A DNA stretch of 64,000 nucleotides from an uncultured Verrucomicrobiae bacterium (GCA_963707995.1 OY970179.1:1424266-1488265); one strand, 5' to 3'. Shown: positions 15,808-42,503, counted from the stretch's first letter. Numbers and translations: made by a program. The notes: a model not told the origin generated them from the letters alone.

Positions 15808-16023
15808 ATGAAAAAGTATACTTTGCTCGGATTGCTCATTTTATGCGCGTGTGGCGGCCGCAATTACTATTATGATGGTGACGGTCATCGCCATTATTAC
15901 CATGATCATGACCATGATCATGACCATGACCATGGCCATGGTCATGGAGATGGCTATCATGGAGAGGGCCATGGAGAAGGTCATCATGAAGGTGGAAGCG
16001 GCGGTGGGGGACATCACCACTAA
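15808..16023 (+). CDS. Small His-rich lipoprotein (putative metal-binding or storage protein)
   Basis: 71 aa. 'MKKYTLLGLLILCACGG' is a signal peptide plus lipobox Cys. The rest is (HD)n/(HG)n, 'HDHDHDHDHDHGHGHGDGYHGEGHGEGHHEGGSGGGGHHH'. There is an RBS-like 'aagaggaaacgg' upstream. Confidence 0.55.
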   Translation: MKKYTLLGLLILCACGGRNYYYDGDGHRHYYHDHDHDHDHDHGHGHGDGYHGEGHGEGHHEGGSGGGGHHH

Positions 16024-17009
16024 TCAAATCGTTTAGTCTCCCATCCTTCTTTCAGAAGTGGGAGACTAAAGTTCAGGAATTCCTCAAAATGGGTATAGGT
16101 GGTCGTCAACATCGTTTGGCGTTGGATCATCGATGCTGCATTGGCCTTAAATAGAAAACCCATCAATTGTTTCATTTTATTGATCTTGAGCCGGATTGAA
16201 CTCTCTGGTGGAATTTGAGAGATGTAGACTTCGAGATAGCGCACAAGATCGTCCCACTGGGGTCGGTAAGGTTTTTTAGCAAAATGGGCGCGAATTTGAT
16301 GAAAAATGAAAGGATTGATCACACCTCCTCTGCCGATCATGAGCGCGTCACAACGCGTCTCTTTTAACATTTTGAGCGCATCTTCAATAGTGAGAATATC
16401 CCCATTGCCCACCAATGGAATCTTCAAAAATGATTTAGCTTCTCCGATTAAGTCCCATCTGGCGGGAGGACCATACCCATCCACTTTTGTCCTTGGGTGT
16501 AAAGTGATGAACTTCACCCCACTTTCCTCTGCAGCGAGAAGATTTTCCTTAAATCGGGAAGTATCCTCATAACCTGAACGCATCTTGATGGTGACAGGAA
16601 TAGAAACCGCCTTGACCATGGCCTTTGCCACCTGATGCAAAAGATCGGGATCTTTGAGAAGGCTAGAACCAGCTCCTCGTCCCGTCACCGTATTCGAAGG
16701 GCATCCACAGTTCAAATCGATCCGAGGAGCTCCCCTCCTTTCTACCTCCACCGCCATGGCAGCCATCAGCTCACAGTCTGATCCCATCAGCTGAACGGCG
16801 AGTGGAATGGGGGCTATTTCATTAGCCTCGTAAGCTTTAGCCAAGCTTTGAACGTGGGCATTCGATGGGACACGAAGAAAATCGGTCACCCCTTCATCAA
16901 AACCACCGACTGTGGCCATCGCCTTGCGAAAACAGCGATCTCCCACTCCCTCCATAGGAGCGAGAAAAAGATAAGGACATCCATTGAGATCTTTAGGCAA
17001 AAAGGTCAT
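16020..17009 (-). CDS. tRNA-dihydrouridine synthase (Dus family)
   Basis: 'LAPMEGVGDRCFR', 'IDLNCGCP' and 'ITLHPRT' are Dus/TIM-barrel FMN motifs. Confidence 0.85.
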   Translation of the reverse strand: MTFLPKDLNGCPYLFLAPMEGVGDRCFRKAMATVGGFDEGVTDFLRVPSNAHVQSLAKAYEANEIAPIPLAVQLMGSDCELMAAMAVEVERRGAPRIDLNCGCPSNTVTGRGAGSSLLKDPDLLHQVAKAMVKAVSIPVTIKMRSGYEDTSRFKENLLAAEESGVKFITLHPRTKVDGYGPPARWDLIGEAKSFLKIPLVGNGDILTIEDALKMLKETRCDALMIGRGGVINPFIFHQIRAHFAKKPYRPQWDDLVRYLEVYISQIPPESSIRLKINKMKQLMGFLFKANAASMIQRQTMLTTTYTHFEEFLNFSLPLLKEGWETKRFD

Positions 17010-17043: not shown

Positions 17044-17070
17044 TATATCCAAGTGAATTCAAAATTTGAT
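17044..17070. repeat. Solo terminal inverted repeat of MITE family A
   Basis: 'atatccaagtgaattcaaaatttgatc' resembles the family A end 'atacccaagtgaattcaaaaatcgg'. Confidence 0.4.
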
Positions 17071-18447
17071 CAGGTACTCTAGAGCCTTTTTTTGTTCCTC
17101 ATGAGCTAAAGAACAAACGGCATAAAGCGGCCTGGAATCGATTTTTTGCCATTGAGAATAGCTTTGTTCAGAGAATCGTATGCCGTAAGATGAGTCAGGA
17201 TGTGCCTCCAAAAACATAAGCATGCTTCTTAGCGTTCTCCCATCGCCACTTTTAACTTCAATCGGAACAATCTTTCGATTGTACTCATAGAGAAAATCAA
17301 CTTCTGCCGTGCTGCTTTTTGCCTGACGCTTCCAAAAATATAGATCTGATTTTTGATAAGGATTGGAATAACAAAGCAATTCTTGCCCAACAAACGCCTC
17401 TGCTATTGGTCCGCGATTGATAAACTCAGGTCCAGGCTGTAAAAACCATGTCGACAAATCAAATCCCAAAGCTGCCTGAGAAAGCGCAATATCAACCAAG
17501 ATGAGTTTAAACCATTCCAAATTCGCCTCAGCTCCGAGAGGAATGCCATTGCCAGCGCTATGATGAATTTTATGTACCACATTGGCTTTGCATAGCAAAT
17601 CCAGACAAGGAGCGAGATCCCTTTTTCTGAATTCACCATGAATGTTGCTATATCGAAATTCTTCTCCAATCATGTGGGGTATTTGACGAAAAAGTGTCTC
17701 AACGAACTCTGTCTGATGTTTAGTTGCATATTTTTCAATATCTTGTCGATATGATGTAATCAGGTTGTGATGAATCTGAAAACTCTCTTTTGGATTTTTC
17801 TCATCCACCCATTTTGCTATCGCTTCTGGCATGCCACCAATGGCAAAATATTCACCAATCAAATCAATCAGCAATTGATGAATTGGCTCAGAAAATGATT
17901 CGTTATGAATATTCTCCAAAATAGCCTTTGCACTTCCTATATTCCCGCTCGCAGCTAAATACTCTAGAAACGACATCGGATACATATACATACTCGAAAC
18001 ACGTCCAACAGGAAGCCCCACTTTTTCCAGAGCAAAATCGAAAAGCGAACCTGCCGCAATAACATGCAATTGAGGCATCTGTTCATAAAAATAACGGAGT
18101 GCCAAAATCGCTTCTGGAGCTTCTTGAATCTCATCAAAAAACAGCAATGTTTCTCCAGGAATGATTTTAGCCCTACCAGCAAATACGGCAAGTTCTCGTA
18201 AAATCCTTTCTGGATTAAGATCTTTCTCAAAAATCAACTTTATGTCTTTTGCCAGTTCAAAATTAACCTCGATTACATGGTCAAAACGTTTTCCCAACTG
18301 CCTCACTGCATGCGTTTTTCCTACCTGACGAGCACCACGAAGCAGCAAAGGTTTGCGGTATTTATGATCCTTCCAGTTCTCAAGATGCCAATCGATCAGA
18401 CGCTTAAACATTGTTTCTCCTGTCAACTTACAAGGTAATTTTATCAC
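17059..18447 (-). CDS. AAA+ ATPase of the AAA_14/DUF4143 family
   Basis: 'LLLRGARQVGKTHAV' is a Walker A motif and 'LLFFDEIQ' a Walker B motif. The C-terminal region has a DUF4143-like layout. Confidence 0.75.
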   Translation of the reverse strand: MIKLPCKLTGETMFKRLIDWHLENWKDHKYRKPLLLRGARQVGKTHAVRQLGKRFDHVIEVNFELAKDIKLIFEKDLNPERILRELAVFAGRAKIIPGETLLFFDEIQEAPEAILALRYFYEQMPQLHVIAAGSLFDFALEKVGLPVGRVSSMYMYPMSFLEYLAASGNIGSAKAILENIHNESFSEPIHQLLIDLIGEYFAIGGMPEAIAKWVDEKNPKESFQIHHNLITSYRQDIEKYATKHQTEFVETLFRQIPHMIGEEFRYSNIHGEFRKRDLAPCLDLLCKANVVHKIHHSAGNGIPLGAEANLEWFKLILVDIALSQAALGFDLSTWFLQPGPEFINRGPIAEAFVGQELLCYSNPYQKSDLYFWKRQAKSSTAEVDFLYEYNRKIVPIEVKSGDGRTLRSMLMFLEAHPDSSYGIRFSEQSYSQWQKIDSRPLYAVCSLAHEEQKKALEYLIKF

Positions 18448-36848: not shown

Positions 36849-37022
36849 ATACCCAAGTGGGTTCAAAAATCGGGAATTTGGCAAAGTTGGCGCCTTGAAT
36901 TTTCATCAGGCCGCAGGCCGGCGTCGAAGCAGGCGCTATTGACTAATAGCGTCGATGCAGAGGGATGAAAAGTCTAGGATGCCAACGCAGCCAAAAACCG
37001 ATTTTTGAATCCACTTGGGTAT
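36849..37022. mobile_element. MITE family A, copy 1 (174 bp), inserted 11 bp after tRNA-His
   Basis: Perfect 25-bp TIR 'atacccaagtgggttcaaaaatcgg' / 'ccgatttttgaatccacttgggtat'. The core is ~90% identical to the copy at 48583-48755. Confidence 0.75.
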
Positions 37023-37117
37023 AAATCATCGAAATTTTCGAGCAGAGCTGCTCACATCTATTCGCAGAAAATAGGCAAAGTCGCTATTTTCAAGAATGGG
37101 CTAAAGGATCGAGGCAT

Positions 37118-37915
37118 ATGACCCTTATCGAAGCATTTATTTTTGGGCTGCTGCAAGGACTGACAGAATTTCTTCCGATCAGCTCTTCAGCCCATGTGAA
37201 GCTCGCAAAGCTCTTTTTCAATGTCGAAAGTTCTGAAGCGCAGGTCCTCTTCGATCTGATCTGCCATCTAGGCACCCTCCTCGCCCTTCTGATTTTCTTA
37301 AGAGAAGAGATCGGTCAGATCCTACGTCGTGATCGACAAAAATTGGTTCGTCTATTGATCGCAACTCTTCCACTGATCCCCTGCTATTTTTTGTTAAAGC
37401 CCTTGCGGGATTACGTTTCCAATCCCCAATTTTTAGGGATCTGCCTCATCTGCACCTCGATGATTTTATTCTCTGGGCAAAAGTGGAAAGTGCGCAGAGA
37501 ACATCCTCCCCGATCAAAGCATCGGATCAGCGACGTTCTGTGGATTGGAGCGATGCAATCTGCGGCCCTCATCCCAGGGATCTCACGCAGCGCTTCGACA
37601 ATTTCTTGTGCAAAAATTCTCGGTTGGGAAGCGGGAGAAGCGACCCGTTTTTCCTTTCTCCTTTCGATCCCCACCATCATTGGGGGCAATTGTCTGGAAC
37701 TGATCAAAATTTATCTCTCTCATGAAAAGACCCCCTTTGTTTCTCTGCCTGTATGCGCTGTTGGTCTGATCACTTCTTTTGTTTTTGGACTCGTGATCAT
37801 CCGTTTTGCCTTTTCTTTCTTGGAACGGGGCAATCTGAAGCCATTCGCTTGGTATTGTCTTAGCTTTGGGGCGATTGTCACCCTATTCCTGAACTTTTTT
37901 CCCGGAGCAAAATAA
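37118..37915 (+). CDS. uppP: Undecaprenyl-diphosphate phosphatase
   Basis: 'GLLQGLTEFLPISSSAHV' and 'GISRSASTI' are UppP/BacA signatures. The protein has 8 TM helices. Confidence 0.85.
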   Translation: MTLIEAFIFGLLQGLTEFLPISSSAHVKLAKLFFNVESSEAQVLFDLICHLGTLLALLIFLREEIGQILRRDRQKLVRLLIATLPLIPCYFLLKPLRDYVSNPQFLGICLICTSMILFSGQKWKVRREHPPRSKHRISDVLWIGAMQSAALIPGISRSASTISCAKILGWEAGEATRFSFLLSIPTIIGGNCLELIKIYLSHEKTPFVSLPVCAVGLITSFVFGLVIIRFAFSFLERGNLKPFAWYCLSFGAIVTLFLNFFPGAK

Positions 37916-42216: not shown

Positions 42217-42503
42217 ACTTTGAAAAAATTCAGAAGCTCTCCCTCGAAGAGAAAAAGAGTTTACTAGAGCGGACGATCAAGCTCCAGGAAGAGGTGGGTG
42301 AACTCGCTCAGCAAGTTCTCATCCAAACCGGCTCCTCCGGATCCCACCACAAGAAAGCCCCAACGAATGATGTTAAGCAGGAAGTTGTCGACGTGACGCT
42401 CGTCGCCCTTTCTATTTTTTTCCTCGAGGGGGGAACTCCTCTAGAGCTCGAAAAGATCGTCGAAGCTAAAATGGGTAAATGGAAGAGCCAGTTCAAAAAG
42501 TGA
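42213..42503 (+). CDS. Small MazG-like nucleotide pyrophosphohydrolase
   Basis: The ATG overlaps the previous stop (ATGA). 'LQEEVGELAQQV' is the E-x-x-E metal-binding helix of MazG/NTP-PPase. The product is 96 aa. Confidence 0.5.
   Translation: MNFEKIQKLSLEEKKSLLERTIKLQEEVGELAQQVLIQTGSSGSHHKKAPTNDVKQEVVDVTLVALSIFFLEGGTPLELEKIVEAKMGKWKSQFKK

Follow-up and report, generated by a model that had tools for sequence, protein, structure and literature searches.

Duplication of TA together with inverted repeats of 20–30 nt is the signature of IS630/Tc1-mariner transposases and also of orphan families such as the Correia elements. MITEs derived from IS630/Tc1-mariner elements, such as RUP of S. pneumoniae and Nezha of cyanobacteria, duplicate TA strictly, and a parent IS with matching ends has been identified for them; an autonomous partner is also missing for many accepted bacterial MITE families, Correia being one of them. 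Correia elements duplicate TA, pair mainly at their repeats and contain a TATAGT that acts as a -10 box, ERIC elements insert at TA, and the Rickettsia palindromic elements (RPE) insert in frame within genes and have no defined TIR/TSD signatures. Correia elements carry a 26-nt repeat starting with TATA and a directional core, are located mostly 5' of genes, leave remnants, have no known transposase and exert promoter, IHF and RNase III effects (PMC2649163; PMC5039591); a remnant of only 17 bp has been described upstream of a gene (PMC2649163). ERIC elements are co-transcribed with their neighbors and have orientation-dependent effects on mRNA, with an RNase E site unmasked in the 3' repeat (PMC10969869). 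REPs are hairpins of 20–40 nt with GTAG/CGTC heads, which are moved by the single-copy RAYT that they flank and make no target duplication (PMC3733652; bioRxiv 10.1101/2021.07.10.451892). The Chlamydiota go unmentioned in a 2024 review of prokaryotic MITEs, and full-text literature searches returned no report of MITEs in this phylum.

The repeats considered here were found in a window of 64,000 nt (the whole stretch of DNA that was analyzed), which belongs to a Rhabdochlamydiaceae MAG according to the NCBI names of identical proteins. They very probably represent an undescribed family of TA-duplicating MITEs of environmental chlamydiae that has a conserved hairpin and is moved in trans. The family is dispersed in many copies at non-orthologous sites, has sharp ends, has undergone bursts in two genomes, is polymorphic for presence and absence between relatives and duplicates TA; additionally, its body is constrained to fold as a single long hairpin. 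The members found in the window and the adjacent tRNA gene are the following:

36848..37023, plus strand: copy 1 including the flanking TAs (element proper 36850–37021), A-end on the left (TIR followed by GGGAATTTGGCAAAG)
48581..48756, plus strand: copy 2 including the flanking TA (element proper 48583–48754), A-end on the left
30266..30453, minus strand in the A-to-B direction: copy 3, a diverged full copy of 188 nt with a perfect 26-nt TIR, in the orientation opposite to copies 1 and 2
36764..36838, plus strand: tRNA-His(GTG), context only and not the target of the element
26152..26171, plus strand: ndh-proximal solo end TATACCCAAGTGAATTCAAA, zero mismatches, ending 3 nt before the ndh ATG at 26175
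17044..17069, plus strand: second solo end TATATCCAAGTGAATTCAAAATTTGA, one mismatch over 17044–17063, also present at L099 3366–3391

A preliminary description of the window had reported two full copies at 36849–37022 and 48583–48755 with perfect 25-bp TIRs, the first of them 11 bp after tRNA-His. Both copies are indeed present, ~90% identical and 176 nt long each with the flanking TA, at the slightly wider spans listed above; their TIRs are real, with a length of 26 nt and one (copy 1) or two (copy 2) mismatches, and copy 1 does adjoin the tRNA gene, at a distance of 9 nt. The diverged copy 3 had been overlooked; it shows ~67% identity to copies 1 and 2. TIR mismatches among the three window copies range from 0 to 2, counted over 26 nt with the TA. 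For the 25-nt repeat pattern the window has six matches against 0.01 expected by chance, and for its 20-nt version eight against 0.05. The two solo ends previously placed at 26153–26172 and 17044–17070 are also genuine, the first being 3 nt and not 2 bp from the ndh start, whereas the claim that solo ends abut gene starts does not apply consistently, since one points away from its neighboring gene and the other toward it. The gene following the ndh-proximal end is annotated as NADH dehydrogenase and has Pyr_redox_2/NDH2_C matches, and this solo end is found in related strains as well (L099 9978–10003). The second solo end overlaps the stop of ORF 17059–18447 while its terminus faces the start of a Dus-family gene (16020–17009) at a distance of 35 nt. 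Regarding the full copies, copy 1 is located 94 nt ahead of the uppP/bacA start at 37118 and occurs in related strains (e.g., L105 8932–9107), and short-read metagenome contigs of the same species break within it (L078); the A-end of copy 2 lies 84 nt upstream of the start of a UPF0158 gene (47354–48496, minus strand), and every same-species contig has this copy with a 248-nt spacer as well; and copy 3, also found in related strains, sits between two tandem Legionella_OMP-family genes. None of the related strains examined lacks any of the three copies, which are therefore probably old and fixed, and activity of their exact subfamily in the window genome finds no support here.

Outside the window, an exact-pattern scan covering one genome per species found the repeat TATACCCAAGTGAAYTCAAAAATTGG in 77 loci of approximately 20 assemblies, nearly all of them either labeled Chlamydiota or "Verrucomicrobia" MAGs with loci syntenic to the window. 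The richest carriers are Protochlamydia sp. MGR_bin260 (32 loci) and SZAS-1 (15 loci). Many loci lie ~100–126 nt from a contig end, as expected from a repeat that breaks short-read assemblies. The extracted set consists of 48 paired elements, mostly of 162–177 nt, and 55 unpaired ends that include truncated forms and mini-palindromes of 40–48 nt. The unit of the family is ~160–175 bp long and ends in 24-nt inverted repeats (TACCCAAGTGAAYTCAAAAATTGG); the TIR is conserved across 92 ends, and conservation begins sharply at TATA (TATACCCAAGT) in 87–91 of the 92, the flanks being unrelated. Lengths of 160–188 nt fall below the ~300–500 bp under which MITEs are recognized, and the elements contain no ORF of note. 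Copies within MGR_bin260 and within SZAS-1 are near-identical (median 94%, maximum 99%), which indicates recent bursts. A metagenome scan with the window-specific ...TCGG variant gave 7 short contigs only, and the family was absent from the viral, plasmid and phage collections searched. Mini-palindromes of 29–48 nt formed solely by the two family ends, e.g., TATACCCAAGTGAATTCAAATTTTTGAATTCACTTGGGTATA, were observed at L049 ~4700–4730 (reverse strand) and in L035, L041, L045, L054 and L066; these may be internal-deletion derivatives or a separate mobile mini-form. In Protochlamydia sp. MGR_bin260 (L032 2490–2660), the central loop of one family copy contains an unrelated nested element of ~167 nt with ends AACCTGAGTTTTGAG... 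and an apparent duplication of 4–5 nt (ATTA/TATTA).

Since both ends read TATA, the sequence of a copy alone cannot distinguish a duplication of TA from one of TATA or from none. Three comparisons of filled and empty sites were obtained (L012/L095, L099/window and L089/L094), of which the first two are clean. The L012 copy of Protochlamydia sp. MGR_bin260, among the youngest, is located 33 nt upstream of a clpV-like gene whose orthologue in L095, from another sample (93% protein identity), is without the element; the L012 flanks plus a single TA match L095 gap-free over 118 nt, whereas joining them with nothing or with TATA gives a 2-nt gap. The second comparison involves a site in the window itself:

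26082..26083, no strand: empty TA target, filled in L099 and L100 (~97% identical strains) by a 159-nt element of a sister subfamily

The empty site reads AAAGT-TA-ACAG and the filled site AAAGT-TA[TACCG...CGGTA]TA-ACAG. The 159-nt element has the TIR TACCGAAAATGATTCAAAAGTTGG, and its ends and core align with the Protochlamydia-type members of the family, which assigns it to a sister subfamily whose presence varies within the species of the window; its insertion site is only 70 nt from the ndh-proximal solo end. In the third comparison, a family copy interrupts an IS605-type tnpB gene (OrfB_IS605/Cas12f-like, L089 455–1993, metagenome contig Ga0173480_10032932), while the intact, 99% identical tnpB (P0001/L094) reads AGCGCT-GGC-AACTGG, with no TA, and the filled copy is without the GGC (3 nt). 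This case proves insertion and does not fit a clean TA duplication; the TnpB beside the L089 copy was considered as a possible partner and rejected, tnpB being the gene that the element interrupts. The flanks show the same weak A-T-T/TA preference at both ends, which fits a symmetric cut. BLAST of joined or separate flanks against the fetched loci returned self-hits only and no empty sites. Two other candidate pairs were discarded: L004 against the window at serS is not a clean empty site as the window genes overlap there, and in L049 against L097 the latter is empty and the spacer too diverged to place the junction. The presence of only the window copies genome-wide, without target-site duplications, had been named in the preliminary description as an argument against a mobile origin; this argument fails, as the family is multi-copy in many genomes and TA is duplicated in filled/empty pairs.

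The proposal that the elements are non-autonomous and mobilized in trans is supported by their copy number, sharp boundaries, near-identical copies in two genomes and TA-duplicating filled/empty pairs; moreover, with no coding capacity the element must be moved in trans. The absence of a transposase ORF from the window was borne out: Pfam detected none among ten unannotated or suspicious ORFs, and the ORF list holds nothing alike. The cognate enzyme was to be sought through matching ends, and no autonomous element with the same ends turned up in the window, in fetched loci totaling ~600 kb or in the collections of viral, plasmid and phage sequences. ORFs lying between distant repeat pairs (L016, 2.9 kb; L069, 618 bp) included no transposase, and the ORFs present in multiple copies across all fetched loci yielded no candidate.

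A second MITE family is present in the window at 20414–20585, 51458–51624 and 56593–56760, with ends at ~33267 and ~35610; its termini are TACCGCGC...GCGCGGTA and contain GTGAATTT. Its copy at 20414–20585 is missing in L099, where the empty site reads TTTTGG-TA-GAACGG, and the one at ~56596–56757 is missing in L108. This family appears to target TA, and the TA/TACC terminus that it has in common with the studied family hints at a common transposase. Several other differences between strains were observed. L099 and L100, strains of ~98% identity elsewhere, have just 32 nt in place of a 2.5-kb window segment (22057–24573) that contains ORFs 22163–22504 and 22860–24524 (no Pfam match); a 155-nt palindromic element (55663–55817; 55655–55819) is missing in L108; L099 has an extra 241-nt element (TGTGTGATTCATGG...) at window position 29107/29109, and L105 an 80-nt palindrome at 42490–42493; and a DUF4258 toxin-like gene of L099 and L105 is missing from the window at 33008/33009. 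ORFs 56707–57417 and 57516–58733 match one continuous P-type ATPase gene of ~660 aa in L004, L075 and L108, and may together be a gene that is frameshifted or split in the genome of the window. With respect to SZAS-1 (L055), the window has ~5 kb extra between the UPF0158 gene and serS (48500–53400), with copy 2 at one edge, and near this segment second-family copies are inverted (51467–51624 and 56593–56750, 93% complementary). Histidine/aspartate-rich coding repeats (CAT/GAC runs) and tandem coding repeats of 126 and 120 nt are found at 15880–15940, 20943–21068, 2590–3642 and 34190–35095, those of 120 nt lying within a WD40 protein gene (33279–35417).

Every window copy folds as a single long hairpin, with RNA folding energies of -97.4 kcal/mol (z = -11.2) for copy 1, -98.2 kcal/mol (z = -13.8) for copy 2 and -104.4 kcal/mol (z = -16.1) for copy 3. 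A structure alignment of 19 elements, taken from the window plus six or seven further MAGs, gave a consensus of 59 pairs in 7 helices. In this alignment 94.7% of the cells are paired, against 27–50% when the partners are slid by 1–3 columns, and 29 of the 59 pairs show compensatory changes, against 7–13 when slid; none of 500 shuffles reached the observed values. Inner stems have been swapped wholesale between lineages with pairing retained, the core sequence itself not being conserved between genomes; in the window the central hairpin stems are GGCGCTATT/AATAGCGTC in copy 1, GGACCTATT/AATAGGTCC in copy 2 and GGCCATGTG/CACATGGCC in copy 3. The two ends can be distinguished, since the A-end is followed by a GGAATTTGGCAAAG-like and the B-end by a GGTTTTTGGCTKC-like sequence. 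A small RNA encoded by the core had also been proposed. There is no indication of a stand-alone sRNA gene, as only pairing is conserved, copies 1 and 2 contain no sigma-70-type promoter or terminator consensus and no Rfam family matches the element (tRNA-His alone passes, the weak hits being noise); a hairpin within a co-transcribed RNA is possible.

The following results on strand folding and orientation are graded as exploratory. When folded as RNA, the A-to-B strand is more stable than its complement in 36 of 37 elements (mean difference -9.7 kcal/mol), and the advantage is found in the core alone (31/35) as well as in the repeats alone (35/35). G-U pairs outnumber A-C by 48 to 15, or by 12 to 5 when counted by site; many of these sites are inherited within subfamilies, so that independent observations are few. 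Of the 19 elements located between co-directional genes, 16 have their A-to-B strand antisense to these genes (16:3; binomial p ~0.004), and a gene start is faced by 28 of 39 A-ends and 20 of 45 B-ends (Fisher p = 0.015); 16 elements are in divergent and 3 in convergent spacers, and the orientation bias comes mostly from the two burst genomes. Three explanations of these biases were tried and rejected. Orientation with respect to local GC skew is 22:15 (not significant), which does not suit a replication-strand effect; promoters or terminators are disfavored by the absence of consensus sites in copies 1 and 2, and a -35-like box "TTGCCA" of the A-end is missing from the Protochlamydia-type subfamily (ends compared by reading); and a mutation bias by deamination of the coding strand predicts G-U on the gene-sense strand, the opposite of what is observed. 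Double-strand cut-and-paste transposition predicts neither a strand nor an orientation bias, and both count against the MITE interpretation. The biases are compatible with selection against the orientation that places the stabler hairpin in the mRNA, and also with a strand-specific step of propagation.

Alternatively, the elements might be structured RNAs, either cis-regulatory hairpins or sRNAs, in which function explains conservation and the inverted repeats are simply the base of the stem. Whole-length pairing maintained by compensatory changes supports this reading, as do the preference for one strand, the gene-relative orientation bias and the retention of the ndh-proximal solo end in two distant genomes. 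On the other hand, conservation is highest in the terminal 26 nt, whose sharp boundary and TA duplication are the signature of transposition, while the core varies between lineages and brings neither promoter or terminator consensus (copies 1 and 2) nor an Rfam match; additionally, a read-through RNA would usually be the poorer folder, given that in most cases the strand with the better fold runs antisense to the flanking genes. Structured RNAs are an improbable primary explanation, and a role of this kind, which is compatible with the MITE reading, could only be a secondary, exapted one. The same hairpin and its one better-folding strand would also suit a top-strand, single-stranded DNA intermediate, as in relatives of REP/REPIN or IS200/IS605 elements moved by an HUH enzyme (RAYT/TnpA-Y1), and both the insertion without TA duplication and the location of that element within an IS605-type tnpB point in the same direction. 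We consider this route very unlikely: HUH transposition does not make the TA duplication seen in two clean pairs, the 26-nt repeats are true inverted repeats without hairpins of their own or GTAG/CGTC heads, the target preference is symmetric, orientation has no clear link to GC skew, no repeat-flanked RAYT-like gene was found in the loci, and the L089 tnpB is a victim of insertion and not a partner.

The solo ends and the tRNA gene give rise to two further readings. If a host protein bound the 26-nt motif, as an operator or an architectural site, the solo ends would be the functional units and the paired elements the carriers that spread them. The ndh-proximal end supports this, since all 11 of its 11 terminal bases recur at the corresponding position of a genome with ~72% identical DNA, within a poorly conserved spacer, as do the mini-palindromes reduced to the two ends in several genomes; yet the two window solo ends stand in opposite geometry to the adjacent gene start, no set of neighboring genes is shared, truncated ends are the usual debris of MITE decay (compare the 17-bp Correia remnant, PMC2649163) and no candidate binding protein is known, which leaves this reading with a very small chance of being correct. 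The proximity of copy 1 to tRNA-His, described earlier as a classical integration hotspot, could suggest the scar of an integrase-mediated insertion at an att site in the 3' end of the tRNA gene. The distribution of the copies refutes it, and practically no weight is given to it here: the tRNA 3' end is neither overlapped nor repeated, the other window copies are not at tRNAs, and no integrase was seen among the ORFs near tRNA-His. Across the family ~4 of ~55 elements have a tRNA gene no more than 70 nt away; they occur on both sides of such genes and next to five different tRNA species, with no overlap of a tRNA 3' end; those of other genomes lie 52–66 nt from different tRNAs and most are far from any. 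An element that targets TA needs no tRNA.

According to the favored reading, that of a TA-duplicating MITE family, an element of ~160–175 bp with 24-nt inverted repeats inserts at TA and duplicates it. Its mover is presumably a TA-duplicating, cut-and-paste DDE transposase, either IS630/Tc1-mariner-like or the one responsible for the movement of Correia elements. The three window copies, fixed among strains and 67–90% identical, would be old insertions that are now part of gene boundaries. Three features illustrate such boundaries:

30322..30344, plus strand: 10-bp hairpin followed by TTTTGATCC, within a 26-nt insertion unique to copy 3 (alignment columns 126–151)
30391..30453, plus strand: beginning of the downstream OMP gene as called by gene finders (start codon and 21 codons, MIKKLKRWDCQIPNFLSYLGI), lying inside copy 3
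48744..48756, minus strand: the four codons that end ORF 48744–49064 (106 aa; I P K stop), contributed by the B-end repeat of copy 2

The hairpin of copy 3 resembles an intrinsic terminator just past the upstream OMP gene and may function as such. The downstream OMP gene is called as 365 aa from the ATG at 30391, with its Pfam Legionella_OMP match beginning at residue 71, and beyond copy 3 no in-frame start codon is seen by eye until well into the gene; copy 3 would thus supply the charged start of the OMP signal peptide, a putative case of exaptation. The overlap of -13 between copy 2 and the end of an ORF recurs at other elements. Moreover, the chlamydial MAG L053 (ndh DNA ~72% identical, spacer poorly conserved) retains the ndh-proximal solo end in the orthologous position, which suggests either an old remnant under constraint or the repeated use of a hot spot.

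Copies that are co-transcribed with their neighbors would most likely form a long RNA hairpin affecting processing, stability or read-through, as reported for Correia and ERIC elements. A stronger version, in which the family is the chlamydial counterpart of Correia/ERIC in function too, with hairpin and orientation kept because they act on neighboring transcripts (processing, stability, insulation, termination), is rather unlikely. The hairpin, the strand asymmetry and the orientation bias nevertheless provide a lead to RNA-level regulation in chlamydiae, in which, to our knowledge, few regulators are known and which are genetically hard to work with. In practical terms, the family breaks short-read assemblies and shifts the calling of gene starts and stops (the OMP start in copy 3, the stop in copy 2). 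The sister families are polymorphic between strains of 97–98% identity and could serve as strain markers; this polymorphism could also indicate that these reduced, host-bound genomes have a transposase that is still active or was so until recently.

With respect to known systems, the likeness to IS630/Tc1-mariner-derived MITEs lies in the TA duplication, TIRs of 20–30 nt, a weak, symmetric AT-rich target and amplification in bursts; the family differs from them in that no parent IS was found here and its ends do not have the CAGT-like start common in Tc1-like elements. REP/REPIN-RAYT systems are likewise short, multi-copy extragenic palindromes with strand-specific folding; in contrast, the ends of the chlamydial element are not self-hairpins, TA is duplicated and no flanked Y1 gene was found in the loci. 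RPEs share the palindromic nature, an obligate intracellular host and the ability to enter coding sequence, whereas the copies of this family are intergenic or at gene edges and the 188 nt of copy 3 are not divisible by three. ERIC/IRU elements (Enterobacteriaceae, Vibrionaceae) and the palindromic MITEs of the Yersinia YPAL type are also whole-length imperfect palindromes of 127–170 bp located between genes; ERIC differs by the lack of sequence similarity and the host phylum, and here the better-folding strand is mostly antisense to its neighbors.

Correia elements (CREE/NEMIS, Neisseria) resemble the family in their size (~100–160 bp), 26-nt TIRs starting with TATA, location mostly just upstream of genes, directional core, two distinguishable ends and truncated remnants, and for neither is a cognate transposase known. 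A partial motif is shared as well: window copy 1 reads AGTGGATT..CAAAAA(T/C)CGG where Correia has TATAGTGGATTAACAAAAACCGGT. Aligned to the 26-nt Correia repeat, TATAGTGGATTAA(CAAAAA/ATTTAAA)(CCGGTACGG/TCAGGACAA), with the 5-, 2- and 1-nt gaps that this alignment needs, the family consensus is a weak match (shuffle p 0.02 for the A-end and 0.13–0.17 for the B-end), whereas the ends of window copy 1 gave p < 0.001; Correia was hand-picked for the comparison. The IHF site of the long-form Correia core (CTTCAGCACCTTA) has no match inside any copy. The host belongs to another phylum, the chlamydial element starts with TATACC and does not have the final T of TATAGT, and it pairs along its whole length, unlike Correia; RNase III cleavage and promoter activity have been shown for Correia. 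The similarity of the ends is therefore a lead and not proof of membership. Three families in the window genome have ends of the form TA/TACC...GTGAATT that partly resemble the Correia repeat, and such shared ends could reflect one widely distributed transposase lineage serving orphan MITEs in distant phyla. The closest analogues of the family are the Correia and ERIC elements.
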